A DNA stretch of 64,000 bases from a virus (IMGVR_UViG_3300033067_001661:1-64000), one strand, 5' to 3'; shown: positions 3,395 through 21,209, counted from the first letter of the stretch. Numbers and translations are program-made. The notes: generated by a model from the sequence alone, not told the origin.

Positions 3395-3464
3395 ACAACC
3401 AATATGTTAGGTGACCAACGGGGGTAACTTAACAGGTTAACCGTAGGTACATTCGACTGGTTGT
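3395..3464 (-). ncRNA. Y-RNA-like module, copy 1
   Basis: ACAACCAG-TCGAATG...GGTTAAC...CATA-TTGGTTGT. Confidence 0.6.
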
Positions 3465-3466
3465 AA

Positions 3467-3540
3467 TGCCCCTACCCGGATTCGAACCGGGAAAACGTCG
3501 GCTTAAAAGGCCGCTGCTTTACCTGATAAGCTTCAGGGGC
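3467..3540 (-). tRNA. tRNA-Lys(TTT)
   Basis: CGGC-CT TTT AA-GCCG. Confidence 0.9.
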
Positions 3541-3712
3541 GCTTCTTATTTTTGTCCGAAATCAATTCTTCCCTAGATTTCGGCTCATGACCTTTGGCAA
3601 ACCACATCTTAAACTCAGACTCGCATTCACAACACTTGGGAGGCTTATTACCTCCTTGGTCAAACGCAAAGGTACATCCGCAATGACATTTAGTACCTTC
3701 AAGTCGTTTCAT
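3533..3712 (-). CDS. small Cys-rich hypothetical protein
   Basis: MKRLEG..CHCGC..CCEC; the upstream part of the listed ORF is tRNA. Confidence 0.5.
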   Translation of the reverse strand: MKRLEGTKCHCGCTFAFDQGGNKPPKCCECESEFKMWFAKGHEPKSREELISDKNKKRP

Positions 3713-3714
3713 AA

Positions 3715-3790
3715 TAGCGGAGATAGGATTCGAACCTATATGGAATGGCTTATGAGACCACCGCTGGGAACCGTTCCAGTCTACTCCGCA
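3715..3790 (-). tRNA. tRNA-Met(CAT), 1:72 mismatch
   Basis: TGGT-CT CAT AA-GCCA; acceptor TGCGGAG/CTCCGCT. Confidence 0.85.
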
Positions 3791-3880
3791 GTCTATATTC
3801 AAATCGACAATTACTCAAAACTTCCTTTAGAGAACACGATTGTTTTAGTCGATACTGAAGTGAAAGAAGAAAGGTTAAGT

Positions 3881-4423
3881 ATGGACACAAAAAACATTCA
3901 TGTCGATTTTGAAAAGCTATCAGCAAGTCTTGTTGACGTTCTTCCTATTGCTATTATTATCTTCAACAGCAAGCATGATATAATCTATTGCAACAAACAC
4001 ACAGAAGCTGTATTCGGATACAAAACTGAAGAACTTATAGGAAAGCCTCTTAGTTCTCTTGTTCCTGATAGATTCAAAGAAAGTCATAGCCATGACGCTC
4101 ATGAATATATGAAAAACCCGAAACCAAGGTCTATGAATAATGGACTGGAACTATATGCTATTCACGCAGACCATCATGAATTCCCCGTAGAAATAGCTCT
4201 TTCTCCATTAGTCAAAGACGACGGAGAACAACTTGTGGTAGCTTCCATTCTTGATCTAACTAAAATGACTTCTCTTATTCTTAGAGTTGATTCTTCTGTT
4301 TTAGCTAACACTGAACTTCAGGGCAAGATTGTTGCAATGAAAGAAAAGATGGTAGAAATGGAAGAGAAGTATTCTTCGCTTCTAAAAAGCTCCCGGTTGG
4401 ATTCGAACCAACGTGTCGTTTAA
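3881..4423 (+). CDS. PAS-domain protein with C-terminal coiled coil
   Basis: N..TE.VFGY..EELIGKPLSSLVP...FPVEIALSP...DLT PAS signature. Confidence 0.85.
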   Translation: MDTKNIHVDFEKLSASLVDVLPIAIIIFNSKHDIIYCNKHTEAVFGYKTEELIGKPLSSLVPDRFKESHSHDAHEYMKNPKPRSMNNGLELYAIHADHHEFPVEIALSPLVKDDGEQLVVASILDLTKMTSLILRVDSSVLANTELQGKIVAMKEKMVEMEEKYSSLLKSSRLDSNQRVV

Positions 4424-4471
4424 CGATTCTGCTTTGCAGGCAGGCCCATTCAACCTCTCTGGCACAGGAGC
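4388..4471 (-). tRNA. tRNA-Cys(GCA) with long variable arm
   Basis: CTGC-CT GCA AA-GCAG; U73; variable hairpin TCGT-TAA-ACGA. Confidence 0.85.
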
Positions 4472-4472
4472 A

Positions 4473-4628
4473 TGGAGGCGAGGGCAGGACTAGCAACTTC
4501 TTACCTTGCAAGGGTTTTGGTCTTGCGACCAAAGAAGTTTACCTGCACCAGTGTCCGTAATACCAGCCGCTCAAGGCCGCCAGACATCGTTCTATACGAT
4601 GAGCCATCGCACCTTAAACTACCTCGCC
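4473..4628 (-). ncRNA. tRNA-like RNA with hairpin inserts in D, anticodon and T loops; encoded CCA
   Basis: GGCGAGG/CCTCGCC-T-CCA; stems GTTT/GAAC, TGTCTG/CGGACA, GCAGG/CCTGC. Confidence 0.7.
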
Positions 4629-4658
4629 AATAGAAACCGCAAGCGCTAACCTGTTGTT

Positions 4659-4871
4659 TCATATAACTTCAATATCAAACGTTTTACCCGGAAGACATTT
4701 TTTGGCTATAGTCAGTCCTCTAGGAACGGAATAATCTCCAACAAAAACGGATGAACCGTATTGTTCTTTGGATACTATGGCCTCATAGTAAGATGGGGCT
4801 GTTCTTTTAAGAAGAACATATCCTATCTTTTCCTTGCCATCATAAATGGCAATTCTCATTCTTAGTTTCAT
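4659..4871 (-). CDS. hypothetical protein
   Basis: ORF from MKLRMR; the upstream part of the listed ORF is tRNA. Confidence 0.55.
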   Translation of the reverse strand: MKLRMRIAIYDGKEKIGYVLLKRTAPSYYEAIVSKEQYGSSVFVGDYSVPRGLTIAKKCLPGKTFDIEVI

Positions 4872-4873
4872 AA

Positions 4874-4948
4874 AGCCCGCTACAGGACTCGAACCTGTAC
4901 ACTTCTGAGTTGCAGTCAGAGCCATTTGTCCATTTTTGGTAAGCGGGC
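4874..4948 (-). tRNA. tRNA-Cys(GCA)
   Basis: TCTGA-CT GCA AC-TCAGA; U73. Confidence 0.92.
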
Positions 4949-4950
4949 AT

Positions 4951-5065
4951 TTAGCTAGTATGGGATTGAACTGGGAAATGCCTACACAGGCTATCCCCCC
5001 ATAGTTTTGAAGAGGAGGATATAAGAGTTGAACTTATTGATAACCCAGAAACTTCGACTAGCTAA
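4951..5065 (-). ncRNA. Y-RNA-like module, copy 2 (enlarged distal domain)
   Basis: TTAGCTAG-TCGAAG...GGGTTATC...CATA-CTAGCTAA. Confidence 0.55.
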
Positions 5066-5092
5066 ACCTAGTTATCGGCTTTTCAACCAACA

Positions 5093-5368
5093 CTAAGACT
5101 TCTTTACACGCTTGTTCCAAGCCTTGACCGCCTTCTTAATCAAATGAGTATCAAGGCACTTGTTACTATTCCAACGAGCAGGCAAATCGCAAAAACAAGA
5201 CTTTGCAAAGCATTTAGAGCAACGAACATGCCAGGCATGTCCGCTGCATTCGACATAAGCATCTCCGCCGCAAAAAGGGCAGGGAAGCAAGTCGTCATGC
5301 TCAACTTCTTTGCGAAGAAAATGACCTTGATCGTCTTTCTTATTCCAGATTGGAACTTGAGTCTTCAT
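5093..5368 (-). CDS. Lar-family (restriction alleviation) Zn-ribbon protein
   Basis: LLPCPFCGG...CSKC...AVKAWNKRV. Confidence 0.8.
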   Translation of the reverse strand: MKTQVPIWNKKDDQGHFLRKEVEHDDLLPCPFCGGDAYVECSGHAWHVRCSKCFAKSCFCDLPARWNSNKCLDTHLIKKAVKAWNKRVKKS

Positions 5369-5666
5369 GATTGCCTTTTCTATCTGGACGAATTTTGAAG
5401 TTTACAACCTCTATACCAGTTTCGTTGATTATAACTTCTATGTCATCAGGAGTTGTAGGCAAACCAAGCTCAGTATACTTTGCGCTTATATCTACAGCTA
5501 ACCGAGCCTTGAACTTAGAGTTAAAAACTTCGTTGCTGATCATTTCATGAGTAAAAGACTCAATAGTATCCAAGCCTGAGTTGTCAAAAGACTCAGCAAG
5601 AGCCTTTGCAAGAATTGGGGAGAAAAAAAGGTCTCTAATCTCTCTTGCAATATTGTCTTTATTCAT
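5340..5666 (-). CDS. hypothetical protein
   Basis: ORF from MNKDNI, coupled to neighbours. Confidence 0.55.
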   Translation of the reverse strand: MNKDNIAREIRDLFFSPILAKALAESFDNSGLDTIESFTHEMISNEVFNSKFKARLAVDISAKYTELGLPTTPDDIEVIINETGIEVVNFKIRPDRKGNHEDSSSNLE

Positions 5667-5873
5667 GGCAGTATTCCAAACTACTTTGCTAACGAAAGTA
5701 TATCCCAAGCAGCAGTAGCGGCTATGGGCCGACTCTTATGAGTATATTGACCTGTTTTCTCGTTCTCAGCCCACCACCAAGGCCGACCAGCTTCGATTTT
5801 ATGAAGAAGCCGCCAACCATGAAGTTGCAAAGTAGACCAACAAGAAGGAAATAGGTCTTCCCTTATTACATCA

Positions 5874-5983
5874 AGCGATTGTTGGGATTCGAACCCTGAG
5901 TCGGCTTTCACTCTTGTTATTCCTAGGAAACAAAACGTCAGACTCAATTAACCAAACCAGTATGCCTACCGGAATACAATCGC
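5874..5983 (-). ncRNA. tRNA-like RNA: acceptor stem and T loop with a non-canonical middle
   Basis: GCGATTG/CAATCGC; GGG TTCGAAT CCC; TGAGTC/GACTCA encloses a long hairpin. Confidence 0.55.
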
Positions 5984-5984
5984 A

Positions 5985-6350
5985 TCATTTTTCAAACCAA
6001 ACCTTGTCTTTGCAGGAAGCTTCTCCGTTATAGTTGATGAAGATTTCTTCGCCCTTCCTGATTGACTTGACAGCAGTAAAGAAAATTTCTTTCTTGCTTT
6101 CATTGAAGTCGTATTCAGCATTGGCGCTTGAAGAATGATTGAAGAAGCTTCCATGACCCATTGCTATCGCAAAGGTATTCTTGCCCCATTCGTACCAGTA
6201 GTTGCTAAGGTCTGTTTGAAACAGACTATTAGTGTCTTTCTTCTTGGTAATCAAAAGAGGATTTACCAGGAACTTTTCGCCCTTGCGGATATCTTTGGTG
6301 GCAAAAACACCTCGACCCGAAATCTTGCTCACTTTTACAACTGTTGACAT
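5985..6350 (-). CDS. SET-domain protein-lysine methyltransferase
   Basis: GRGVFA...FNHS...GEEIFINY. Confidence 0.9.
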   Translation of the reverse strand: MSTVVKVSKISGRGVFATKDIRKGEKFLVNPLLITKKKDTNSLFQTDLSNYWYEWGKNTFAIAMGHGSFFNHSSSANAEYDFNESKKEIFFTAVKSIRKGEEIFINYNGEASCKDKVWFEK

Positions 6351-6395
6351 AGAACAGATTATAGGCGATTGTTTGACACAAATATCTGAAACAAG

Positions 6396-6487
6396 CGGAT
6401 GGGGTCGGGGTCGAACCGACAGTCCGCCTTGCGACGGACGCCTGCTTTCCAAGCAGGTACAGAAAACCAACTATCTGAGTCCCATCC
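6396..6487 (-). tRNA. tRNA-Ser(GGA)
   Basis: CCTGC-TT GGA AA-GCAGG; long variable arm; G73. Confidence 0.92.
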
Positions 6488-6491
6488 AAAG

Positions 6492-6609
6492 AATTCCTGC
6501 CGGGCGTCCCCTGACTACGCTGTTCAACCATATGAACTTCCAGGGCAAAAGCGCCCCAGATTGGATTCGAACCAACTACCTTCATAGCTCGCTTAGCGAA
6601 GCAAGAATT
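6492..6609 (-). ncRNA. circularly permuted tRNA-like RNA
   Basis: Order is T arm, CTGGGGC-GCTTTT-GCCCTGG, D arm; termini AATTCTTGC/GCAGGAATT pair. Confidence 0.7.
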
Positions 6610-6635
6610 AACAACGCCGCTAGCAGCGTTGAAAG

Positions 6636-6685
6636 CGGAGAGCAAGGGATTCGAACCCTCATTGCGCCTTTTAAGACGCAAGACT
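6636..6685 (-). pseudogene. 3' half of a disrupted tRNA-Ser
   Basis: Variable arm GCGTCT-TAAA-AGGCGC, T arm, acceptor strand GCTCTCC-G. Confidence 0.8.
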
Positions 6686-6956
6686 AAATATCTCTTGAAA
6701 CTATATCTATTTTCTTTCGCAAAACTGTAACGTCTTCTAGATATTCTTCTGAATCTAAATCTAAACAGTGATTATCAAGAAAGTTAACAACCTCTTTAGC
6801 TATATCTTTTAGAGATTCTATCCTAAACAAAAGTTCACTTTTCCATTCTTCTACAGTATCTCCATCTAATTGATTGGTTGATGCCTTATGTTGAGAATGC
6901 AGCATTTGGCGAATCAACTCTTCAATAGATGCGTTTTTATGTGATCTTTCTTTCAT
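6684..6956 (-). CDS. hypothetical protein
   Basis: 90-aa ORF inside the Ser cassette. Confidence 0.55.
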   Translation of the reverse strand: MKERSHKNASIEELIRQMLHSQHKASTNQLDGDTVEEWKSELLFRIESLKDIAKEVVNFLDNHCLDLDSEEYLEDVTVLRKKIDIVSRDI

Positions 6957-6959
6957 AAG

Positions 6960-7050
6960 CGGATGGTGTCAGAGTTGAACTGACGGCACCCCTTACGAGG
7001 TGCGGCGGTTTAGCAAACCGCTGGGAAAAACCGACATTCCCGTACCATCC
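6960..7050 (-). tRNA. tRNA-Ser(GCT)
   Basis: GCGGT-TT GCT AA-ACCGC; long variable arm. Confidence 0.92.
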
Positions 7051-7052
7051 AA

Positions 7053-7748
7053 TTATCTTTTCAAGATATCATCGCCATTTTTTATAGCTTTGATTTCTTG
7101 CTTTTTCCAAACCAGAAGCTTATGGTCAAACTGACTCCACTTGCTTCTGTCTTTATCTGTCTCGAATCCCTTGACTTCCAAGTAACTGTCTATGTCTTCA
7201 ATATAGAAATCAGGAGTATAAAATCTTTCTTTACTGTCGTAATTATAGGCAAAACGATTCTTATTTCTCTTCCATTTCACACCAATTTTATCAAGATACT
7301 GAGCTACTTCAAGCTCCCAAGTTCCATCAACTTTTATTAATCCAGCAATCGGACTATTGTAATCTATTTTCTTACAGCGACCAGCTTTTGGCATCCAACC
7401 ATTTTTGTATCGTTTATTGATTGAATTTCTTATCTTTTCTCGTCGCTGTTCTTCTGTCTTTTTGGTCCCTGCAACGCCTAGATTTGGATGACCAATTAAT
7501 TTAGCAGAAACCCTCGCAGATAACTCAGCGGCTTTTTCTTTGCCGTAAAGCTCTTCGTTAGTCTTGCCTTTGTTCCAAGCTTGTTGCTCGCCAGTTTTCC
7601 CTTTATTCCACGGAGCTACGCCAGTTTGCTTTTTAGCAAGTTTGGCCCGTATTGCTGGACAACGAGAAACATTCTTCTCACAGCAATAATTCTTACCTAT
7701 CAGGTATCTACCCTGACAACCGCATCCATGTTTACATATTATATCCAT
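7053..7748 (-). CDS. free-standing endonuclease: NUMOD3-like repeats plus PD-(D/E)xK domain
   Basis: PWNKGKT/AWNKGKT repeats; YTPDFY...YLEVKG. Confidence 0.85.
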   Translation of the reverse strand: MDIICKHGCGCQGRYLIGKNYCCEKNVSRCPAIRAKLAKKQTGVAPWNKGKTGEQQAWNKGKTNEELYGKEKAAELSARVSAKLIGHPNLGVAGTKKTEEQRREKIRNSINKRYKNGWMPKAGRCKKIDYNSPIAGLIKVDGTWELEVAQYLDKIGVKWKRNKNRFAYNYDSKERFYTPDFYIEDIDSYLEVKGFETDKDRSKWSQFDHKLLVWKKQEIKAIKNGDDILKR

Positions 7749-7791
7749 ACATTATATGTATCGACATAATATCATTATTGCTTCAATAAAT

Positions 7792-7828
7792 GCAAACTGC
7801 TGCCGCCAACCATATCGGCCTACTCTCC
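7792..7828 (-). pseudogene. 5' half of a disrupted tRNA-Ser(GCT)
   Basis: GGAGAGT-AG-GCCG..CGGC-A-GCAGT-TT GC| breaks in the anticodon; pairs with GCTCTCC at 6637-6643. Confidence 0.8.
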
Positions 7829-7857
7829 AAGGCGAGCTATCTTAGCTCGCGATTATC

Positions 7858-8124
7858 TTACTGACCTACCGTAACAATCGGAAACGGGCTAGAGCAAGCA
7901 ACTATTTCTCCACTTCCCTTTTCCGTCAAAGTACCATTAGGAGTGTGAAACACAACCCTATCAACTTTTACGTTTACAACATTATTATCGTCATCTACCC
8001 CAACGATAACACCAAGAACTTCCATTTTTGCAATACCAACTGGCTGATCATTATCAGGCCAAGCCTTCACAAAATCTCCAAATCTAACTTCTTTCTTTTC
8101 AAAACCTGCATATCCATAATTCAT
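7858..8124 (-). CDS. hypothetical protein
   Basis: ORF with AGGAG RBS. Confidence 0.6.
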   Translation of the reverse strand: MNYGYAGFEKKEVRFGDFVKAWPDNDQPVGIAKMEVLGVIVGVDDDNNVVNVKVDRVVFHTPNGTLTEKGSGEIVACSSPFPIVTVGQ

Positions 8125-8187
8125 TACTATTCTCCTTATAGGGTTAATAGTAATTACAAATGAAAATCTGGCATTCCTCTTACAAAG

Positions 8188-8338
8188 TGGGGACGGTAGG
8201 ATTCGAACCTACAAAGTCTCAAAGACGCCCAGTGTACCGCTGGGTTTGCTCGCCTTCTCTCTATCGTAATAGATCAAAAATTACTATAGAGAGCGGAACT
8301 CGCTTCGCCGCGAGGGTGGCTATCCATGCCGCGTCCCC
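8188..8338 (-). ncRNA. tRNA-Tyr(GTA)-like RNA with a ~65-70 nt structured insertion in the D arm
   Basis: GGGGACG/CGTCCCC-A; CCCAG-CG GTA CA-CTGGG; variable arm GTCT/AGAC; normal T arm. Confidence 0.7.
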
Positions 8339-8360
8339 GAATAATCCGATATTAAAGCAT

Positions 8361-9170
8361 ATGACTCCAATATGGGTTCGTCAAACCAATCTACCAGGTC
8401 TAGGCGATTTTGTTAGAATCTGCCCGACAATTCTTACCCTTTCCCTAAAAGAAGGTCGTCCAATTCCAGTTTTCTTCGAAAACAAAGAAATGGAAGTTAT
8501 TTTCCAAGACTGTTCTTTTATAGAAGTTCTTCAAGAAAAACCCAAAACACCATGTTATCTTTCAACGACAGCAATACTCAATAAGAACATTAAGTATGGC
8601 GCTATCAAAAACAAATACTATGGCGTTCACTTCTCTCTTCATGGAAACGAAAACATGCTTCCATTTTCTATTGGAACCCAACTCCCATATAGAGAGAAGT
8701 TTCCTAATGCAGTAGCTGTTTTTTGCGGTATTGGAGTACCAAGACTCTATAGATACGGCAAAAACATTGGAGACGACAATCGAAGATACATTCTCAAGTC
8801 TCTCATAAAGAGAGGTTACAATCCTGTTATTCTTGGTACTGAGAGCGACCATAAGATGTTCTGGTCTAATATAGACATGACAGGATGTGTAAACATGCTT
8901 GGAAAGACAAAGCTTTTTCAAGCAGTTCGTATTTTGAATGATTGTCAGTTTTTTATCTCGAATGATACATGCCTGTATCATTTTGCTTCTGGACTACAGA
9001 AGAAAGGTCTCGTCTTTTGGAGAGAAACCTCTCACAAGATTGACGGCAACCCATTTGATAAGGACTTTATCCAACACCATCAAAGCGAGGATATAACAAC
9101 TTACAAAACAGTTGTTGACAAGTTCCTTGACAAGCAAAGTTCCCTCCCGGAATCGAACCGAGCTATCTAA
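8361..9170 (+). CDS. glycosyltransferase family 9-like (heptosyltransferase fold)
   Basis: GLGDFV...NMLGKTKL...FISNDTCLYHFA. Confidence 0.8.
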   Translation: MTPIWVRQTNLPGLGDFVRICPTILTLSLKEGRPIPVFFENKEMEVIFQDCSFIEVLQEKPKTPCYLSTTAILNKNIKYGAIKNKYYGVHFSLHGNENMLPFSIGTQLPYREKFPNAVAVFCGIGVPRLYRYGKNIGDDNRRYILKSLIKRGYNPVILGTESDHKMFWSNIDMTGCVNMLGKTKLFQAVRILNDCQFFISNDTCLYHFASGLQKKGLVFWRETSHKIDGNPFDKDFIQHHQSEDITTYKTVVDKFLDKQSSLPESNRAI

Positions 9171-9209
9171 GGTACGAACTTAGCGCATCGCCTACAATGC
9201 TTAGGGAAC
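9138..9209 (-). tRNA. tRNA-Thr(CGT)
   Basis: CTAAG-TT CGT AC-CTTAG. Confidence 0.92.
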
Positions 9210-9383
9210 ATTTTTCTTTCCGCGAATCAACTTCATCATGATTCTGTAAACTATTGGCGTTGAACTTCTCCAGGCAAAGTTAAAAGCGTCTTCAATGGAG
9301 ACAATTCTGCGAAAACGATATGTTTCGCCCTGCCAAGAACGATAAGCATGATAAAACAAAATCATGAATCGAAAAACTCTCAT
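9201..9383 (-). CDS. hypothetical protein
   Basis: 60-aa ORF ending inside the tRNA 5' end. Confidence 0.4.
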   Translation of the reverse strand: MRVFRFMILFYHAYRSWQGETYRFRRIVSIEDAFNFAWRSSTPIVYRIMMKLIRGKKNVP

Positions 9384-9419
9384 AAACAGAGTTACTGCTT
9401 ATGGAGTAAACATTCCTAC

Positions 9420-10217
9420 TTAGTTGAAGAAAAGTTCTAAATAAGCAAACAAATCCTCTACCGAAACAGTTGAGGAATCATTGCAATCAGCGCTTATATC
9501 TGAAATGAAGTAAGCGTCAAGAAAAGAAAACAAATCCTGAGGACTCACTTGACCGTCTTTGTTGAAATCACCAGAAGAAACAAAGTAACTTGCCGGAGCA
9601 ACAACAACTTCGATATCGCCTTTCCATCGAGTTTCTATTGTCCAATTTCCATCATTAGATGGACGAACATTGAAGGCTTTTATCCAAACTTCATTAGATT
9701 CTAAACCGCTCACGCTTTGAGTTGAGCCATTTGATAATCTAACAACTTGTTGACTTCGAGGAAAACGACCTATGTAATGGCGTCCGCCAGCTACAAGATC
9801 CGAAAGAGTCCAGTTCTCGATTATATCAGGGTACTGCTTTACCCACATAGGAATATCTCCTACATTGGGAAAGAAATACGAATTACCATTCCATCCAATT
9901 GTGTCGCATTGAATGGTTGGTCCATAATCGCTTGATGTTTCTATTTTTACCTGCGTATTTCTATAAGGTTGCGACGTTCTTTCAAATGGCAAACTTACAT
10001 CAACAGCAATTGGTTGATTATTGAATGTAGCAAAAAGTCTTGGAGGATCAAAATCGTAGAAACACTGATAGTTACTAATCTGTTCTGGCTGCTCCCAGCC
10101 GCCAATATAAACAAGAGCATTTCCCATTCTTGCATTCTCAATGCGAATCGTCATAACGTCCGCTTTGATTTGAGAAACAAGAGCTAACAAACCAACAATA
10201 AAACCTAAAACTTTCAT
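9420..10217 (-). CDS. secreted protein with C-terminal duplicated dockerin-like EF-hand domain
   Basis: Signal peptide; DFNKDGQVSPQDLFSFLDAYF...ADCNDSSTVSVEDLFAYLELFF. Confidence 0.8.
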   Translation of the reverse strand: MKVLGFIVGLLALVSQIKADVMTIRIENARMGNALVYIGGWEQPEQISNYQCFYDFDPPRLFATFNNQPIAVDVSLPFERTSQPYRNTQVKIETSSDYGPTIQCDTIGWNGNSYFFPNVGDIPMWVKQYPDIIENWTLSDLVAGGRHYIGRFPRSQQVVRLSNGSTQSVSGLESNEVWIKAFNVRPSNDGNWTIETRWKGDIEVVVAPASYFVSSGDFNKDGQVSPQDLFSFLDAYFISDISADCNDSSTVSVEDLFAYLELFFN

Positions 10218-12926: not shown

Positions 12927-12932
12927 ATAAAG

Positions 12933-13011
12933 TGGTGAGAGTAGGATTTGAACCTACGACGCGCTGATTTACCTAGGTTACAGCCGCTCTACCAGACTGA
13001 GCTATCTCACC
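12933..13011 (-). tRNA. tRNA with enlarged anticodon loop, isotype undetermined
   Basis: Intact acceptor, D and T arms; GCTG-TAACCTAGGTAAAT-CAGC. Confidence 0.65.
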
Positions 13012-13843: not shown

Positions 13844-13912
13844 GAACTGATATGTAGTTGATACAAGGGTGGAAACATTACAAGTGTTAACCTTATATCT
13901 ATCGACCAGTTC
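13844..13912 (-). ncRNA. Y-RNA-like module, copy 3
   Basis: GAACTGG-TCGATAG...AAGGTTAAC...CATA-TCAGTTC. Confidence 0.65.
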
Positions 13913-14859: not shown

Positions 14860-15010
14860 TGTAAGTAGGTTTCATATTATTGTTTCTATGAAACTCGCAG
14901 TCTAAATGGTCTGCTGCATTGAAGCTAGTAACAGCCACCTGTACACTTGAGCGCTCGCATGTACAAGCTCTTATATCCTATGTACGTTCTAATCCGTACT
15001 GCTACTTACA
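14860..15010 (-). ncRNA. unknown multi-hairpin structured RNA
   Basis: Terminal TGTAAGTAG/CTACTTACA enclosing five hairpins. Confidence 0.55.
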
Positions 15011-15013
15011 AAG

Positions 15014-15086
15014 CATCCCCAGTAGGAGTCGAACCTACAACCTTATCCTTAGGACGGATCTGCTCTTCCAATTGAGCTATGAGGAC
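15014..15086 (-). tRNA. tRNA-Arg(CCT)
   Basis: ATCC-GT CCT AA-GGAT. Confidence 0.9.
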
Positions 15087-15093
15087 ATGAAAG

Positions 15094-15166
15094 CTGCCCC
15101 AGTTGGATTCGAACCAACATTGACTTGCTTCAGAGGCAAGTGTCCTACCATTTAGACGACAGGGCA
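15094..15166 (-). tRNA. tRNA-Gln(CTG)
   Basis: CTTGC-CT CTG AA-GCAAG. Confidence 0.92.
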
Positions 15167-15171
15167 AAGAT

Positions 15172-15295
15172 GCAGCGACCTTGTATATAGGGCTTCTTCC
15201 AGCAGAAGAGTTGTCTCCCCATACTCGACCTTATCACGGGCAAATCTATAGGCTCGATTCTGGCTTCGAGGACAACCCCATAGACTCTCCGCTGC
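15172..15295 (-). ncRNA. unknown structured RNA, possible pseudoknot
   Basis: Terminal GCAGCGG/TCGCTGC; AGTCTATG/TATAGATT; GGGTTGTC/GACAACTC. Confidence 0.5.
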
Positions 15296-15300
15296 TTAAG

Positions 15301-15374
15301 CGCTCCTGGAGGGATTCGAACCCCCAACTTTCTGCTTAGAAGGCAGAATTTCTGTCCAGTTGAATTACAGGAGC
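15301..15374 (-). tRNA. tRNA-Arg(TCT)
   Basis: TCTGC-CT TCT AA-GCAGA. Confidence 0.92.
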
Positions 15375-15379
15375 ATAAG

Positions 15380-15407
15380 CGTTCCCAAGAGGAGTCGAAC
15401 CTCTAAC
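15380..15407 (-). pseudogene. 3' remnant of disrupted tRNA-Arg(ACG)
   Basis: AGAGG TTCGACT CCTCT-TGGGAAC-G; pairs with GTTCCCA at 16014-16020. Confidence 0.85.
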
Positions 15408-15415
15408 AAAACAAG

Positions 15416-15489
15416 CGCTCCTGGGAAGATTCGAACTTCCAACTCCGACATTCGTAGTGTCGGTTTCTGTCCAGTTGAATTACAGGAGC
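15416..15489 (-). tRNA. tRNA-Arg(ACG)
   Basis: CGACA-CT ACG AA-TGTCG. Confidence 0.92.
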
Positions 15490-15929
15490 TTATCAATATT
15501 ACCTCGATACCAGCCAAACTGTTTAGCAGTTTTTCGTTGATGACAGTTTGCACATCTTACATCGCATTTTTCTACTTCTTTGAGAATTGTTTCCCAACTA
15601 AATCCATACATAAGACTTGATACTGTTTGTCTTTTCTTGCCTCTTACATGATCGAACTGAAGAACAACAGGATCTTTTTCGCCGCAATCAACGCATGGAT
15701 GTTCAAGTAGATAGCTGTACATCTTATTCTTGTTTTCAGCTATGATTACAGCGTTTCTTTTCACTGCTTTCTTTTTGTAGTATTCTTTGTTGTTTTGATA
15801 GTGCTTTTTCTTATGAATCTTGTTGCATTCCGTACAAATGGAATGTCTCAATTTCTTTTCTTTGCTGCGAAAAGTAAAGTCATTGATAGGCCTTTGTAGA
15901 CCGCATTTCGTGCATGTTTTTGTTTCCAT
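15480..15929 (-). CDS. HNH endonuclease
   Basis: CTKC..CTEC; CVDCGEKDPVVLQFDHVRG...CDVRCANCHQRKT. Confidence 0.92.
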   Translation of the reverse strand: METKTCTKCGLQRPINDFTFRSKEKKLRHSICTECNKIHKKKHYQNNKEYYKKKAVKRNAVIIAENKNKMYSYLLEHPCVDCGEKDPVVLQFDHVRGKKRQTVSSLMYGFSWETILKEVEKCDVRCANCHQRKTAKQFGWYRGNIDKLL

Positions 15930-15978
15930 ACATACCTCCTAAGAAGTATGTACAACAATGCACTCGAAAATCCTTCTT

Positions 15979-16020
15979 TGATTCGTAGTCAGAAACTCTA
16001 TCCAATTGAGCTATGGGAAC
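15979..16020 (-). pseudogene. 5' part of disrupted tRNA-Arg(ACG)
   Basis: GTTCCCA-TA-GCTC..GAGT-T-TCTGA-CT ACG AA-TCA|. Confidence 0.85.
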
Positions 16021-16291
16021 AATGATTCATTTTTGATGAGAGAAGAAGACTTCAATAGGTCCGGTCTTTACTTGGTAATACAACTGGAAGTCATTATCAA
16101 CGTGACAGTAGTACCAATACTTCTGTTTCCAAGTGGCGTCCTTCTTGACGTTGAACTTCTCGTCCTTTGCCCAAGAGTTTACCCATGCTTTCGGATGAAG
16201 TAAAAACTTAAACTGAACAGAAGTGCCTTTAGCGAAGCCACACCTTGAAATCCCAAATCAAATGAAAGTACATAGCGTACTCCTTTCTAAA

Positions 16292-16367
16292 CACCCCCAG
16301 TTGGACTCGAACCAACAGCTTCAACCTTCGCAAGGTTGCGTGCAAAATTCCCTTACACTTTGGGGGT
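16292..16367 (-). tRNA. tRNA-Arg(GCG)
   Basis: CAACC-TT GCG AA-GGTTG. Confidence 0.88.
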
Positions 16368-16373
16368 AGCTGC

Positions 16374-17063
16374 TCATCTCTTCTTCATGAAGTTATGAAC
16401 GCATCTATCTGTTCCGATTGCAACTTCGATATTCTTGATTTTAGAATCGAAGTCTTTTCTGCGCGAAATCGAGCAAATCTCCATTTCTTGCTCAGGTTCA
16501 ACGAAGATTACGTCTGTCGTTTCGTCTGAATAAGAAGGCAGTCTATCGCTCTTTTCGGTCTTGCAGTTGACAAGAAGTTCTGCAAGGGCTTTTCTTACGT
16601 CCTCAACAAGACGAGGATAGTAGTCATTAGAAGTATTCGCAGCAAACAGGATCTGAAACTCAAGTTGATAAAACTCTTTGAGTCTCATGAACTTTGTTGG
16701 CTGGTCTTGTTCTCTTCGGAAGCTCTTTCCATGTTGCCAGACGCAGATTGGCGGTTTGAACTTCGGGTCATGATACCCGCTCAAGATATGGCGAGCATAC
16801 GCATATGACCCCATTGTTGTTTCTGGTCTCAAGGCAAGCTGATCAACCATGTAGAAATCATCAACTGAATAGTTGAGATTAATTTCGCTAGACGGCGTAA
16901 GAATCGGCGCTTCGCATTGAACAAGCTTGAAAGCTTGATTCATAGAAAGCAAAGAGCGACGAACAGCAGAAACCATATGTTCAACGAACATATTTCGGAT
17001 TCTGATTTCCTCTTCAGACCAAAAGACCAACCCGTTGACGTTATACAAATTCGCATGAGACAT
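16374..17063 (-). CDS. minimal class II aaRS catalytic core, alpha2 GlyRS-like, no anticodon-binding domain
   Basis: LRPET, motif 2 GKSFRRE..MRLKEFYQLEFQ, motif 3 IEVAIGTDR eight residues before the stop. Confidence 0.85.
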   Translation of the reverse strand: MSHANLYNVNGLVFWSEEEIRIRNMFVEHMVSAVRRSLLSMNQAFKLVQCEAPILTPSSEINLNYSVDDFYMVDQLALRPETTMGSYAYARHILSGYHDPKFKPPICVWQHGKSFRREQDQPTKFMRLKEFYQLEFQILFAANTSNDYYPRLVEDVRKALAELLVNCKTEKSDRLPSYSDETTDVIFVEPEQEMEICSISRRKDFDSKIKNIEVAIGTDRCVHNFMKKR

Positions 17064-17114
17064 AAGAAACCTTTCTGGTAAACGATCTACTTGGTATACT
17101 AGACTTCACCAAAA

Positions 17115-17204
17115 CGGATGGTACTGGACTCGAACCAGTAGAGGCTTTTTAGACCCCGCTCGTTTTCGAAACGAGTACGACTAACCGATATTCGTCTACC
17201 ATCC
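17115..17204 (-). tRNA. tRNA-Ser(CGA)
   Basis: CTCGT-TT CGA AA-ACGAG; long variable arm. Confidence 0.92.
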
Positions 17205-17426
17205 ATTGATTTTTTCTTTTACAAGAAACTTACCATCTAAGTCTGTTGCTATAAAAGCTTCTATGTTCTCATTTAGCTCAAAAATCCAACTAAATTCTTT
17301 TTCTTGTTGAAGTTCTATTCTTAGAAGTCTCAAATCTTCTTCTGTGATATCATTTTCATAGACAACCATATGAAGAACATGAAGTTTGTCTTCCTTGTGA
17401 TAACCAATCAAGAGTATATTTTCCAT
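17196..17426 (-). CDS. hypothetical protein
   Basis: 76-aa ORF. Confidence 0.55.
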   Translation of the reverse strand: MENILLIGYHKEDKLHVLHMVVYENDITEEDLRLLRIELQQEKEFSWIFELNENIEAFIATDLDGKFLVKEKINGW

Positions 17427-17428
17427 AA

Positions 17429-17518
17429 AGACCTAGCTACGGGATTCGAACCCATATCTCCGGGCGTTTCAAAACCTGATCAGGTTGCCCATGCGCATTA
17501 CCATTATGCTAAGCGGCC
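17429..17518 (-). ncRNA. tRNA-like RNA or pseudo-tRNA with expanded anticodon arm
   Basis: D and T arms intact; GGGC-AACCTG AT CAGGTT-TTGAAAC-GCCC; bulged acceptor. Confidence 0.55.
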
Positions 17519-17673
17519 TACATTCTTTCATGTTGTCAATCCAGTTTCGGACAAGCCGTGACTTGGACGGGTCAACCCTCGTTTAGCCGATCTCCGTCGC
17601 AGTAGCCTTACCAGGGGTCTCTGCAACATTATGGAGGTCGGAATGCTTGGAGTATTGGGCGATTCCAGGTAAA

Positions 17674-17745
17674 CTGCCTCGCTAGGACTCGAACCTAGAT
17701 TCAGAGCTTCAAAGGCTCCCGTCCTACCAGTTAGACGACAAGGCA
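17674..17745 (-). tRNA. tRNA-Gln(TTG)
   Basis: GGAGC-CT TTG AA-GCTCT. Confidence 0.92.
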
Positions 17746-17750
17746 ATAAA

Positions 17751-17969
17751 TCAATAACAGTCTCTTACTCTTGTTGAAGAGTAACCAACTGAAGACATAA
17801 GACTATCTCTTAGTTTTATGAAGGCTTCTTCGCCGTAAGCGTCAGCTTTACCGTCTCTTCGACGAGCCTCATTTGCGGCCATCATGCCTTGGGCTTCGAT
17901 ATAAGCCGCCATAGCCTCAGCATTGAGTTCTGCTGCTATCATTGCGATTCTTGCAGCGGTTTCGTTCAT
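17751..17969 (-). CDS. hypothetical protein
   Basis: IEAQGMMAANEARRRDG...AYGEEAF small phage-type protein. Confidence 0.65.
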   Translation of the reverse strand: MNETAARIAMIAAELNAEAMAAYIEAQGMMAANEARRRDGKADAYGEEAFIKLRDSLMSSVGYSSTRVRDCY

Positions 17970-18005
17970 GTTCTTTCATCGCATATTTTGCGTTGATTAG
18001 AACAG

Positions 18006-18191
18006 TTATTCACCGCATGTTTGATCGTTTTCTGTGGTTTTTTCTACAACAGGTTCCGTCTTATTCTCTTCTTTGTTTACAGGAGTGTTTTGCGAAGAAT
18101 CTTGCGTTGTATTTACTGAAGCATGTATAGGATTGGTTCCGCTATTGGTCATGGGGGTATACAATGGATTGTTGGCGCTTTGTTGTTCCAT
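18006..18191 (-). CDS. hypothetical low-complexity protein
   Basis: AGGAG RBS; 61 aa. Confidence 0.5.
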   Translation of the reverse strand: MEQQSANNPLYTPMTNSGTNPIHASVNTTQDSSQNTPVNKEENKTEPVVEKTTENDQTCGE

Positions 18192-18220
18192 ATTCTCTTA
18201 CTCCTGTAATTATGCCTAAG

Positions 18221-18314
18221 CGGAGCGGAAGGGATTCGAACCCTCATGGCGGGGGTTACCCGCCAGCCAGTTTTCAAGACTGGTACAGCATAGCCTTTAG
18301 CTGCCACCTGCTCC
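18221..18314 (-). tRNA. tRNA-Ser(TGA)
   Basis: CCAGT-CT TGA AA-ACTGG; long variable arm. Confidence 0.9.
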
Positions 18315-18470
18315 AAACGCCTTGCATGGTTTACCCTAGGAGCTACAGCCCATGCATCTAAACCCTAGAAAAGACGAGTACAGGAAACTTTGTACTCTTA
18401 AGCCCTCGTTTATCGACTTGCTGAACCGCTCCCATAAGGCGGGGGCGTGCTATAGTCATTCAAGGTGTTT
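18315..18470 (-). ncRNA. unknown structured RNA
   Basis: Terminal AAACACCTTG/CAAGGCGTTT; GAGTACA/TGTACTC; TGCATGG/CCATGCA. Confidence 0.5.
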
Positions 18471-18538
18471 GGGCCAAATACCTACCCAGTTTTCGCCTGT
18501 GCGCAAACAGGACTTATAAGCATTGGGTTATGCTAAAG

Positions 18539-18622
18539 TGGAGGTAGAGGGACTCGAACCCCCGTAGACCTAAAGGCCGCCTGATTTACAGTCAAGAGCA
18601 ATTGCCGCTATGCGATACCTCC
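18539..18622 (-). tRNA. tRNA-Tyr(GTA)
   Basis: CTTGA-CT GTA AA-TCAGG; variable arm. Confidence 0.92.
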
Positions 18623-18626
18623 AAAA

Positions 18627-18697
18627 TGCAGGTACGGAGAATTGAACTCCGTCGTACTCCTTGGCAAGGAGCCATGCTTCCGTAACATCTTACCTGC
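18627..18697 (-). tRNA. tRNA-Gly(GCC)
   Basis: GCTCC-TT GCC AA-GGAGT. Confidence 0.9.
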
Positions 18698-18702
18698 GAA
18701 AG

Positions 18703-18793
18703 TGGGAGTAAGAGGAATCGAACCTCCAATGTTAACTCTTAAGAGAACAGATTTACAGTCTGCTGCCACACAACCAATAGTGACGTTACTCCC
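18703..18793 (-). tRNA. tRNA-Tyr(GTA)
   Basis: GCAGA-CT GTA AA-TCTGT. Confidence 0.9.
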
Positions 18794-18797
18794 GAAA

Positions 18798-18869
18798 AGA
18801 GGCATAGGGGAATCGAACCCCTTTGAACCTGCTTGGAAGGCAGGCAATCAACCAATGACTCAATGCCTC
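18798..18869 (-). tRNA. tRNA-Gly(TCC)
   Basis: CCTGC-CT TCC AA-GCAGG. Confidence 0.9.
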
Positions 18870-19341
18870 AATACGCTATCAAATGCGCTGAACCTGGATT
18901 TCCAAGTCCGTCAACTTCATAACTTGATTCTATCTCAAAACCAAGTTTCTCAAGAACAGGTATGAGAATAGGATTTACAACCCATATTCTCATCATTGTG
19001 TTATGACCCATTTCTTGATAGTCCATCTTCTCCATATTGTATTTCTTGAGAGCTTGCTGTATAAGACCTAAACCAACACCCTGACGACGAAACTCAGGCT
19101 TTACTACAAGGTCAAACGAAAACACCATTACGTCTTCGCCGTAACTATTATCATTCGTCCAACCGCTTGCCAAAGCGCCAATAACAACGCCATTTTCTAT
19201 GGCAACTTGACTTACATTCTTTTCTCTGCCATAACGAATAGCATTATCCTTGAAAACTTGGTCAGCTTGTTCAGCTTTTTCCCAGTCCTCTTCAGGATCA
19301 ATATGCTTGAAATCGGCGTCATCTGCTTTCTTGTACCACAT
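18868..19341 (-). CDS. GNAT acetyltransferase with MWYKKA N-terminus
   Basis: VVKPEFRRQGVG acetyl-CoA motif; LEKLGF. Confidence 0.85.
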   Translation of the reverse strand: MWYKKADDADFKHIDPEEDWEKAEQADQVFKDNAIRYGREKNVSQVAIENGVVIGALASGWTNDNSYGEDVMVFSFDLVVKPEFRRQGVGLGLIQQALKKYNMEKMDYQEMGHNTMMRIWVVNPILIPVLEKLGFEIESSYEVDGLGNPGSAHLIAY

Positions 19342-19388
19342 AACACCTAATTCTTCGGATTCTTTTATAATCCTCTAGAATCTTACAA

Positions 19389-19529
19389 AGCTGCGCTCGG
19401 GACTCGAACCCGAAACCTCGACCTCAAAATGGTGTTAACCTTCATCCTATCGACCAGTCAGTTATTAGACTGACTGATATGTTGCCGGCGAAGATGTTTT
19501 TTCGCGCTCTACCATTGAGCTAACGCAGC
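19389..19529 (-). ncRNA. tRNA shell with the Y-RNA-like module replacing the anticodon arm
   Basis: GCTGCGT/GCGCAGC, canonical D and T arms; CATA-TCAGTCAG..CTGACTGG-TCGATAG..AAGGTTAAC. Confidence 0.75.
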
Positions 19530-19534
19530 ATTTT

Positions 19535-19599
19535 GAACTGATATGTTGATGAACGTAAGGGGTTAATTTGCAGTTAACCTTATGTTCTTCGACCAGTTC
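19535..19599 (-). ncRNA. Y-RNA-like module, copy 4
   Basis: GAACTGG-TCGAAG..AAGGTTAAC..CATA-TCAGTTC. Confidence 0.65.
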
Positions 19600-19604
19600 T
19601 AAAG

Positions 19605-19678
19605 TCAGGGAGACAAGATTTGAACTTGCGACCTTCTGGACCCAAACCAGACGCTCTACCAAGCTGAGCTACACCCTG
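19605..19678 (-). tRNA. tRNA-Pro(TGG)
   Basis: TCTGG-TT TGG GT-CCAGA. Confidence 0.92.
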
Positions 19679-19681
19679 AAT

Positions 19682-19751
19682 GAATCAGTATGTTGGAGAA
19701 TAAGGTGTTGTTACAATTTCAAGTTGTTAACCTTACTCATTCGACTGATTC
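19682..19751 (-). ncRNA. Y-RNA-like module, copy 5
   Basis: GAATCAG-TCGAATG..AAGGTTAAC..CATA-CTGATTC. Confidence 0.65.
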
Positions 19752-19759
19752 TAAATCGT

Positions 19760-20173
19760 TCAACAAGTTTTATCCTGCTGAACAAGGTCTTTTTGATTTC
19801 CAATCGTGATGTGGAATGTATGTTTGTAGTCTTTAGGAGGCTCAATGTAAGGGCTGATTATAGGCAACCCAAGTTCCACCCGAATCTCTTCGAGTCGCTT
19901 ACTAAAAGCATCGACCCAAAAGTAAAGCGTACCGTTACGAACCACGTGGGTGTATTCAAATTCTATTTCTTCACCCGCATGTTTGTTCCAGAACTCCATG
20001 TTAGGATTTTCTTTGCGAACAACAGATATATGAGCGTCATACATCTGAGTATTCGTTCTAATTGATTTCGGTAGTAGACTGCGATAGTACCTAACAATCT
20101 CTTGGTCTACATCAAGAACGAGATTTTCTCGTCCATACCGAAGTATGCCAGTTGATTTGAAAAGGGTACTCAT
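19760..20173 (-). CDS. 2H phosphoesterase
   Basis: Two Hx(S/T) motifs: HISV and HITI. Confidence 0.8.
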   Translation of the reverse strand: MSTLFKSTGILRYGRENLVLDVDQEIVRYYRSLLPKSIRTNTQMYDAHISVVRKENPNMEFWNKHAGEEIEFEYTHVVRNGTLYFWVDAFSKRLEEIRVELGLPIISPYIEPPKDYKHTFHITIGNQKDLVQQDKTC

Positions 20174-20176
20174 AAA

Positions 20177-20301
20177 TACGGCGAGTAGGACTCGAACCTA
20201 CAACCCGGGGTTTGGGTTAACCTTGTTCCATTCGGCCTGAAAAGGCATGTATTAGGAGAAGGTGTTTTAGACTCCTGCTCTGCCAATTGAGCTATCGCCG
20301 T
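20177..20301 (-). ncRNA. second tRNA shell with the Y-RNA-like module replacing the anticodon arm
   Basis: ACGGCGA/TCGCCGT, canonical D and T arms; CATG-CCT TTTC AGG-CCGAATG..AAGGTTAAC. Confidence 0.75.
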
Positions 20302-20373
20302 AAAACTTACTACAGAGGTTAGTCCGCAGCAAACATAGAACTTAACATCGTCAAGTCAATAAGGAGTTCACAA

Positions 20374-21048
20374 ATGGAGCAAGAAAGAAAGTTTGGAAGA
20401 ATGTACTCAAAGGACAGTAGAGACCGCTTGTTTATGGCTCGTCCGCCAATGGCAACCTCTAATATCAAGTATAAGTTCTGGTATACTTCGCCAGCTTACG
20501 ACCAAGGTAATACAAGTCAATGCGTTGCTTACTCTGGTGTAAAACTCCTTGATTCTGGTCCTGTCAGAAACCTAAAAGCTGAAATGGACTTTTCCTTTGC
20601 TGACCTTTACAAAGAATGTCAACAAAACGACGAATGGCCTGGAGAAGATTATGAAGGAACGTCTGTTCGAGCGTTGATGAAGGTTCTTAGAAGCAAAGGC
20701 TATATTAGCCGTTATGAATGGGCTTTTGATTTACAAACCATTATCAATCATGTTCTTACAACAGGTCCAATGGTTGTTGGAACATGGTGGACAAATGATA
20801 TGTTCTATCCTGACGAGAAGAGCTTCATTCGAGTTGGAGGACGAGCGGTTGGCGGTCATGCCTATCTAATCAAAGGCGTGAATACAACAACAGTTTGTCC
20901 TGACGGAACGATTGGAGCTTTCCGCATTATCAACAGTTGGGGAGAGAACTGGGGAGTTAGGGGTTGCGCTTCTATTAGTTTCAAGGACTTTGAAACTCTG
21001 TTGAATGCGGAAGGCGAAGCTGCAACGATTGTTGAGGTTAAGAAGTAA
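20374..21048 (+). CDS. papain-like C1 cysteine peptidase
   Basis: DQGNTSQC, GGHAY, NSWG. Confidence 0.9.
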   Translation: MEQERKFGRMYSKDSRDRLFMARPPMATSNIKYKFWYTSPAYDQGNTSQCVAYSGVKLLDSGPVRNLKAEMDFSFADLYKECQQNDEWPGEDYEGTSVRALMKVLRSKGYISRYEWAFDLQTIINHVLTTGPMVVGTWWTNDMFYPDEKSFIRVGGRAVGGHAYLIKGVNTTTVCPDGTIGAFRIINSWGENWGVRGCASISFKDFETLLNAEGEAATIVEVKK

Positions 21049-21049
21049 G

Positions 21050-21123
21050 TCAGGGTGACTGGATTTGAACCAGCGGCCTCTTGCTCCCGAAGCAAGCGTT
21101 CTACCAAGCTGAACTACACCCTG
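21050..21123 (-). tRNA. tRNA-Pro(CGG)
   Basis: CTTGC-TT CGG GA-GCAAG. Confidence 0.93.
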
Positions 21124-21126
21124 AAG

Positions 21127-21209
21127 TAACCAGTATGGGGTTGAGAAGACGTTTTAACCGCAATGCGGTTGCTTTACAAGAGCGTTAATCTTACTCATTC
21201 GACTGGTTA
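21127..21209 (-). ncRNA. Y-RNA-like module, copy 6
   Basis: TAACCAG-TCGAATG..AAGATTAAC..CATA-CTGGTTA. Confidence 0.65.

Follow-up and report, generated by a model that had tools for sequence, protein, structure and literature searches.

A dispersed set of putative Y RNAs, two of them built into tRNAs, in the tRNA array of a giant uncultured phage

We analyzed the first 64,000 nucleotides (here, the window) of the 333,623-base IMG/VR virus record IMGVR_UViG_3300033067_001661, which derives from a giant uncultured phage, is labeled G000, and has a CheckV completeness of 66%. Eight related elements lie in the tRNA array of this window, and we propose that they are very probably Y RNAs of the phage whose shared part, the "handle," would be bound by Ro60 (Rsr/TROVE), a ring protein encoded by the phage. 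In support of this reading, which was advanced in a preliminary description of the sequence, the handle is a conserved, covarying RNA structure; in phages both related and unrelated, it directly precedes true Ro60 genes, in the relatives on the same strand; and it is the stem of a YrlA-type RNA in a mycobacteriophage, LolaVinca. Material from other phages consisted of contigs of relatives (G001 to G010) and individual loci (L numbers).

RESULTS

Eight elements share a covarying handle

All eight modules that the preliminary description had placed in the tRNA array, between 3.4 and 21.2 kb, were located on the minus strand, the strand of every one of the 42 tRNA genes of the array. They sit in tRNA-like slots with gaps of 2 to 4 nt to the adjoining tRNAs. 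Six stand alone (S1 to S6) and two are embedded in tRNAs (E1 and E2). The stand-alone forms fold into a first helix (P1; 7 to 8 bp), an internal loop with UCGAWNG on its 5' side and YCAAC..CAUA on its 3' side, a second helix (P2; ~8 bp, ending in AGG), UUAAC, and a distal part, with fold z-scores of -2.2 to -3.5 for the six. This is the layout described previously, except that UUAAC, formerly taken for a loop, is the 5' flank or strand of the distal hairpin. P1 is built from the two RNA ends in all six stand-alone forms, and the same stem is capped (permuted) in E1 and E2. We take the handle to comprise P1, the CGAA-containing internal loop, P2, and GGUUAAC.

A covariance model of the kind called for in the preliminary description (R1) was built from the P1 and P2 pairs only; its training set comprised five copies from the window and four from other contigs and did not include S2. 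Searched over the whole record, R1 gave six matches, which were exactly S1 to S6 (E values of 1.5e-18 to 4.5e-4). R1 misses the two embedded elements, and a scan with a relaxed core motif adds only these two to the family. That scan returned 16 matches, against 17.8 expected by chance from shuffled sequence; half of the 16 are the eight elements, and these are grouped on one strand inside 18 kb. The elements are as follows (R2 is a second model, for tRNA-Y chimeras, used below).

S1, 3396-3464, minus strand: stand-alone; R1 52 bits, E 2.3e-10, with fold and loop comparison; P1 CAACCAG/UUGGUUG; 5' loop strand UCGAAUG; 3' strand ACAUA; distal loop CUGUUAA; starts ~2 nt after tRNA-Lys 3467-3540.
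S2, 4951-5066, minus strand: stand-alone, with a long three-hairpin distal domain; R1 28 bits, E 4.5e-4; fold z-score -3.4; P1 UAGCUAG/CUAGCUA; UCGAAGU; UUAUC; 3' strand CCAUA; ends 2 nt before tRNA-Cys 4874-4948.
S3, 13844-13912, minus strand: stand-alone; R1 66.9 bits, with sequence and fold; P1 GAACUGG/UCAGUUC; UCGAUAG; distal loop CUUGUAA; tRNA-Lys(CUU) and tRNA-Asp on either side, with 3-nt gaps.
S4, 19535-19599, minus strand: stand-alone; R1 59.1 bits; UCGAAGA; distal loop CUGCAAA; tRNA-Pro(UGG) on one side and E1 on the other.
S5, 19682-19751, minus strand: stand-alone; R1 83.2 bits; P1 GAAUCAG/CUGAUUC; UCGAAUG; distal loop CUUGAAA; flanked by the stop of the 2H-SAK open reading frame (ORF) and by tRNA-Pro.
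S6, 21127-21209, minus strand: stand-alone; R1 60.4 bits; fold z-score -3.2; P1 UAACCAG/CUGGUUA; UCGAAUG; distal loop CUUGUAA, with one more hairpin; located between tRNA-Pro(CGG) and an odd tRNA-like gene at 21212-21286.
E1, 19389-19529, minus strand: tRNA-Y chimera; R2 114 bits, with MAFFT alignment and pair counts; handle at 19434-19494, reading P2 3' strand, GGCAACAUA, capped 8-bp P1, UCGAUAG, P2 5' strand, UUAAC.
E2, 20177-20301, minus strand: tRNA-Y chimera; R2 110.8 bits, with alignment; Rfam tRNA 49.1 bits with a 54-nt insertion; handle arm at 20216-20262, with a capped P1 of 3 to 4 bp; CCGAAUGG.

The closing stems differ between elements yet remain paired, which had been read as covariation, and this was borne out for both P1 and P2. 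In a structure-blind MAFFT alignment, P1 was 98.6% paired, and both partners had changed in 6 of the 8 pairs. In an alignment of 25 distinct copies from several phages, which was fitted to the model, pairing was 94.9% for P1 and 76.6% for P2, and 7 of 8 pairs were doubly changed in each helix. The pairing score observed in the 25-copy alignment was reached by none of 500 shuffles, and slid controls were 33 to 48% paired. These compensatory changes, which keep both helices across phages whose Ro60 proteins are 39 to 80% identical, make it most improbable that the elements are decaying tRNA pseudogenes, duplicated junk without function, or a DNA-level site (GTTAAC and TCGA palindromes). Several odd or broken tRNA-like genes in the array would suit such an origin, but a DNA site predicts conservation of sequence without compensatory change, and what we observed was purifying selection on pairing; moreover, the occurrence of the elements is strand specific, and orthologous copies are kept in G001, G005, and G007.

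The 5' strand of the handle carries the motif GNCGAAN0-1G, which is found near the 5' ends of YrlA and YrlB RNAs and is tied to recognition by Rsr (Chen et al. 2014, PMC4201824). The preliminary description had given this motif correctly, and its strict form is present in six of the eight elements (GUCGAAUG in three, GUCGAAG in two, and GCCGAAUG in one); S3 and E1 have GUCGAUAG instead. Separately, UUAUC in place of UUAAC after P2 accompanies CCAUA in place of ACAUA in 3 of 4 copies from several phages. This pairing of variants may reflect a tertiary contact, and the counts are too thin to call. Pairing of UUAAC with the loop strands, or a self-dimer logic for GUUAAC, was looked for in the sequences and found no support.

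At the gathering threshold, and also at E values up to 10, no Rfam family matched any of the six stand-alone elements. Self-cleaving ribozymes (hammerhead, twister, pistol, hatchet, and hairpin) were rejected since their core motifs do not fit and no Rfam ribozyme matched, and kink-turn, sarcin-ricin loop, and T-loop motifs, considered from the sequence, likewise do not fit. A blastn search of positions 19300 to 21300 against cultured phages returned tRNA-Pro as the sole match.

Modules lie upstream of Ro60 genes in other phages

When IMG/VR was scanned for exact matches to a pattern covering the motif's 5' half, 59 loci were returned, and the true relatives among them come from giant-phage contigs. 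The three longest of these contigs (G001, G002, and G003) each encode a TROVE protein; that of G001 has TROVE and Ro60-type vWA domains and matches Deinococcus radiodurans Rsr (2nvo) with an E value of 8.5e-108. Two copies that had been chosen by motif alone proved to be adjacent to TROVE genes. With R1, modules were located on the strand of TROVE, ~300 nt upstream of the gene in G001 and G003 and ~2.4 kb upstream in G002, and in G001 three stand-alone modules and one tRNA chimera lie within the 700 nt before the Ro60 start. Every relative that reaches the Ro60 stretch has a module just upstream of the true Ro60 gene on the same strand; by motif or by R1, such a module was found in G001/G003, G002, G006, G007, G010, L093, L094, and LolaVinca.

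Around ten viral homologs of the G001 Ro60 (39 to 100% identity; 115 kb), all 11 R1 matches with an E value of <0.05 were on the strand of the gene, 57 to 1300 nt upstream of it. As a control, R1 was run on 50 loci (458 kb) with a chance occurrence of the 5' motif, and nothing fell below an E value of 0.05 except at L030. That locus has four tandem R1 matches, and its contig, G010, carries TROVE ~200 to 600 nt downstream on the same strand. In mycobacteriophage LolaVinca (Bixzunavirus group), the intergenic region that precedes the Ro-like gene has three R1 matches, and one of them contains the Rfam YrlA tRNA-like domain (36 bits). Subthreshold YrlA matches (42 bits) were also found beside or under the R1 matches directly upstream of TROVE in L093 and L094.

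The Ro60-adjacent copies in G001, G006, G007, and G010 lie where ARAGORN finds no ordinary tRNA, and the handle encloses a YrlA domain in LolaVinca. Both observations argue against reading the handle as an element of the tRNA operon with a structural or processing role (for example, a spacer guiding RNase P, E, or Z) or as the site of some other phage RNA-binding protein, with its nearness to Ro60 incidental because such genes often stand beside tRNA arrays. We consider that alternative unlikely. It would explain why all eight window copies occupy tRNA-like slots 2 to 4 nt from tRNAs, and in G002 and L094 the Ro60 gene does adjoin a tRNA array, but the 5' strand bears the published Ro60-recognition motif (PMC4201824), and no match was obtained in the 458 kb of control phage DNA without TROVE.

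As a side observation, L094 also encodes a bacterial class A RNase P RNA (L094:1217-1544, plus strand; RF00010, 252.7 bits), set in an array of >30 tRNAs that ends in Y RNAs and the Ro60 gene.

Distal hairpins copy anticodon loops

The preliminary description called the distal domains variable, which is not simply so: in five of the six stand-alone elements (S1, S3, S4, S5, and S6), the distal part is a hairpin of 3 to 5 bp with a 7-nt loop of the form CU-NNN-AA that copies an anticodon loop. The anticodon loops of three tRNAs encoded by the phage itself recur exactly: that of tRNA-Ser(UGA) in S5 (CUUGAAA), that of tRNA-Cys(GCA) in S4 (CUGCAAA), and that of tRNA-Asn(GUU) in S1 (CUGUUAA). The loop shared by S3 and S6 (CUUGUAA) is one base off that of the phage tRNA-Thr(UGU). 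The loops, that of S5 included, are kept in the G001 and G005 orthologs, and a Tyr-type loop (CUGUAAA) occurs in G002. The Ro60-adjacent stand-alone copies of G001, L088, and L090 have mostly short A-rich distal loops. In S2, the second distal hairpin shows compensatory changes in the G001 ortholog (L083:1498-1643).

D and T arms are absent from the stand-alone forms, which are not tRNAs. ARAGORN -mt called S1 an armless "mtRNA-Asn"; its other calls were scattered, no other module was called on its own strand, and we did not count this call as evidence.

Two elements are tRNA-Y chimeras

The acceptor, D, and T arms of E1 and E2 are normal, and the handle forms a capped extra arm between the D and anticodon arms, with its strand order permuted. 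The order of the chimera is acceptor, D, handle, anticodon hairpin, T, acceptor. In E1 the handle is followed by a short anticodon-like hairpin, ACC-AUUUUGA-GGU; in E2 and in the Ro60-adjacent chimeras of relatives, a linker, CUAAAACA, and a C-rich 7-nt loop, AAACCCC, are held in common. The anticodon hairpins of the chimeras are short or have nonstandard loops.

Twelve chimeras from several phages aligned without structural guidance (MAFFT), and all five helices were supported. Counted over 13 aligned sequences, i.e., the 12 chimeras and one nonmember (the E3 candidate, below), the acceptor, D, and T arms were 100% paired, P1 was 94.5% paired, and P2 was 78.8% paired, with double changes in 24 of the 29 pairs. 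R2 scored chimeras at 66 to 117 bits, compared with at most 50 bits for ordinary tRNAs, and matched chimeras absent from its training set, located just ahead of TROVE in G002 (two) and G010 and, in one case, inside the G007 array. Rfam reports "tRNAs" of 122 to 127 nt adjoining TROVE in L087, L088, L090, L091, and L092. E1 was called neither by Rfam nor by default ARAGORN, and E2 scored 49.1 bits against RF00005, for which the threshold is 29 bits, but this score required placing 54 inserted nt within the anticodon loop.

Under an alternative reading, the modules would be small tRNA-gene introns or mobile insertions that an endonuclease together with a ligase (such as RtcB or the 2H enzyme) cuts out of E1 and E2, and the stand-alone elements would be free or decayed forms. 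Rfam and ARAGORN -i do model E2 and E1 as tRNAs with "introns" of 52 to 71 nt, an ORF with a 2H-SAK phosphoesterase match lies between E2 and S5, and relatives encode RtcB. The alignment of the 12 chimeras, however, puts the insert after the D arm and ahead of the anticodon arm, outside the anticodon loop itself, and shows the apparent loop of E2, CUAAAAC, to be a linker conserved in all chimeras; on both grounds, we rejected the intron readings of the two tools. No bulge-helix-bulge layout was seen on reading the sequences, a group I intron would need a much longer insert, and no intron or ribozyme family matched in Rfam at E values up to 10. E1 without its insert keeps merely a 3-bp anticodon stem, and the stand-alone copies are under structural selection and conserved beside Ro60. 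On this evidence, we regard an intron origin as very unlikely.

One further candidate, E3 (21384-21498, minus strand; GUCGAUUC...CUUAAC), was rejected as a member since R2 scored it at 40 bits, like ordinary tRNAs. It has good acceptor, D, and T arms with ~66 nt between D and T, and ARAGORN -i calls it a tRNA-Leu(UAG) with an intron. We also noted that the E1 orthologs of three close phages (19421-19433, minus strand, in the window; L010:874-1002; L012:7578-7719) are nearly identical outside the 7-nt anticodon-like loop, which reads AUUUUGA, AUUUGGA, and AUGUUAA.

DISCUSSION

Relation to known Y RNAs

YrlA RNA (RF02553; PMC4201824; Wang et al. 2018, bioRxiv 10.1101/312249) has the same layout as the handle, with P1, GNCGAA(N)G at the junction of P1 and the internal loop, and P2. 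The RF02553 consensus has GCGAAUG at this junction and AAAACUUG on the 3' strand, and both YrlA and the phage elements share a 3' strand with AAC(U/A)U and a link to a tRNA-derived structure. As with YrlA, the modules of relatives precede Ro60 and share its strand, with several copies often in a row, and R1, although built on window modules, matches the stem around the YrlA domain of LolaVinca. YrlA-like RNAs have been described in Ro60-encoding mycobacteriophages (Chen et al. 2014, PMC4201824).

There are also differences. YrlA is a circularly permuted tRNA mimic in which the T arm precedes the D arm, the acceptor stem is closed, and there is no anticodon loop, whereas E1 and E2 have the normal tRNA order, open acceptor ends, an anticodon-type hairpin, and a capped handle arm. 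Because closing the acceptor stem and opening P1 converts the architecture of the chimeras into that of YrlA, the chimeras are normal-order counterparts of YrlA, related to it by circular permutation. The six stand-alone forms, in contrast to YrlA, mostly bear only an anticodon stem-loop (five of six), and the window copies stand in a tRNA array far from Ro60.

A dimeric-tRNA origin has been proposed for YrlA (Sim and Wolin 2018, as cited in Wang et al. 2018). Read from handle to handle, tandem chimeras give the handle 5' strand, T arm, acceptor strands plus spacer, D arm, and handle 3' strand, which is the YrlA order and is in line with that model as cited there. R1 scores such a span across the tandem pair of G002 (L084:1501-1630, E 1.4e-4). 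The resemblance is formal because the two P1 halves of this span, which come from different tRNAs, do not pair well.

Beyond YrlA, YrlB and the Yrl1 and Yrl2 RNAs of Thermus phage phiLo can be likened to the modules by their descriptions: they too are small RNAs with a stem and a CGAA internal bulge, upstream of a phage Ro60. The available portion of the phiLo report describes a Ro60 that binds two upstream RNAs with a 5'-3' stem flanking the CGAA bulge, with the binding and complexes including host PNPase shown experimentally, and it makes no mention of anticodon-loop copies or of a position in a tRNA array (PMC12135203). Metazoan Y RNAs and Deinococcus Yrn1 follow the same modular plan of a Ro60-binding stem and an effector module. 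The 5' strand of animal Y RNA, GGUCCGA, resembles GGUCGAA of the phage elements (PMC4201824); unlike metazoan Y RNAs, the phage elements have no bulged-C helix, because opposite the CGAA strand lies an unpaired strand, CAACAUA. In Yrn1, PNPase is the partner of the effector module, and the counterpart of that module here would be a copy of an anticodon stem-loop or a tRNA body.

Weighing the assignment

Several points weigh against assigning the elements to the Y RNAs. The comparison with Rfam models suggested in the preliminary description came out negative: neither YrlA (RF02553) nor Y_RNA matched any of the eight at E values up to 10, and none reached the RF02553 gathering threshold of 69 bits. 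The weak, chance-level YrlA matches in the window fell on ordinary tRNAs or on two adjacent tRNAs. Two of the eight elements have U for the second A of CGAA. The anticodon-loop copies may reflect only descent from tRNA genes and not function. The window copies are 80 to 100 kb from the expected position of Ro60, outside the same-strand proximity of 4 kb that serves as a criterion for bacterial Y RNAs (Chen et al. 2014, PMC4201824). Finally, the expected Ro60 gene itself was not seen. The preliminary description had noted its absence from the window, and a search widened to the whole 333-kb record found no TROVE/Ro60 gene; a search of the record for RtcB was likewise negative, and TROVE and RtcB were both found in relatives.

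The absence of Ro60 is explained by the record being a fragment, with a G001-type Ro60 stretch falling in the missing part. G001, which is 98% complete and the nearest complete relative, is collinear with G000, in inverted orientation, over 121 to 158 kb and 326 to 360 kb of its sequence. Between these, 159 to 326 kb of G001 has no counterpart in G000 except one weak isolated match, and the two ends of our record flank this stretch. At 167 kb, this stretch equals in size the missing third of the genome estimated by CheckV, and it holds both TROVE (at 237 kb) and RtcB (at 268 kb). A second relative links the edge of the array to this region: G007, a 123-kb contig, matches window positions 1 to 6 kb at 69 to 98% identity and continues beyond position 1. 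Its TROVE gene lies ~80 kb past that position, with three modules upstream of Ro60 and one more inside the tRNA array. The gene order of these relatives strongly implies that a Ro60 gene is present in the missing part of the phage genome.

A possible pathway and function

If the elements are Y RNAs, they would be transcribed with the tRNA operon, given their strand and their spacing of 2 to 4 nt from tRNAs. Cleavage of the downstream tRNA by RNase P would then make the 3' end of a stand-alone element, and 3' trimming of the upstream tRNA would make its 5' end; the chimeras would be processed like tRNAs. The released RNAs would bind Ro60 via the handle. The design appears modular, with the handle joined to an effector module that would be either a copy of an anticodon stem-loop (Asn, Cys, Ser, and, twice, Thr) or a whole tRNA body.

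What such effector modules might do can be suggested only tentatively. Our best guess, less likely than not, is that the Y RNAs tether Ro60, together with a recruited nuclease or repair enzyme, to proteins that recognize anticodon loops, or act as decoys for such proteins, in a conflict over tRNA cleavage. The context fits this idea: relatives encode RtcB, and a 2H phosphoesterase ORF lies inside the array of the window. More speculatively, and rather doubtfully, the elements could form an interchangeable set of Ro60 adaptors, each displaying the exact anticodon loop of one tRNA or a chargeable tRNA bearing the handle. The particle, with RtcB, the 2H enzyme, or a host exonuclease, would be aimed at, or be a decoy for, host enzymes that cut or modify anticodon loops, and the chimeras would be living intermediates between tRNA and YrlA.

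Other features of the array

The 2H-SAK ORF (19760-20173, minus strand; 137 amino acids) lies between E2 and S5. Its match to the 2H-SAK phosphoesterase family is weak (PF22547, E 5.9e-5, below the cutoff), and it has two HxT/S motifs. It is kept in G001 at ~140.0 kb, where it is 73% identical and adjoins the S5 ortholog. Elsewhere in the array, a 229-amino-acid ORF (16374-17063, minus strand) has the class II aminoacyl-tRNA synthetase core as its sole match (PF00587, E 5.5e-8) and looks like a truncated or stand-alone synthetase catalytic domain.

Three tRNA or tRNA-like genes also stand out. A tRNA with anticodon CUA (12932-13011, minus strand; "Pyl" in ARAGORN; Rfam tRNA, 53 bits) is of the amber-suppressor type and hints at TAG recoding. 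The odd tRNA-like gene next to S6 (21212-21286, minus strand) has a partial Rfam match of the tmRNA/mascRNA type and an anticodon-like loop, UUUGCAA. Another odd tRNA-like gene (18702-18795, minus strand) has a long variable arm, a score of 38 bits with the tRNA-Sec model, and a loop with GUA.

Implications

Phage Ro60 genes with adjacent Y-like RNAs have already been published (PMC4201824, PMC12135203, PMC7824862). In the literature, we found no description of Y RNA modules in tRNA arrays, of Y RNAs with anticodon loops, or of normal-order tRNA-Y chimeras. What the sequences appear to add to published work is therefore the presence of copies in a tRNA array 80 to 100 kb from Ro60, the distal hairpins that copy anticodon loops, and the chimeras in normal order.

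For annotation, the tRNA arrays of giant phages would hold Y RNAs that Rfam and tRNA finders miss, and Y RNAs need not adjoin Ro60. The findings also touch on two general questions about Y RNAs, namely, the partner of the tRNA-like effector module and the origin of Y RNAs from tRNAs. On one constant handle, the phages would offer a natural series that runs from a bare loop beside Ro60, through copies of anticodon loops and tRNAs in normal order, to permuted YrlA in other phages. Such a series yields constructs for Ro60 binding and for partner pull-downs, suggests anticodon-loop-binding proteins as candidate effectors, and would put sequences behind the dimeric-tRNA origin model.

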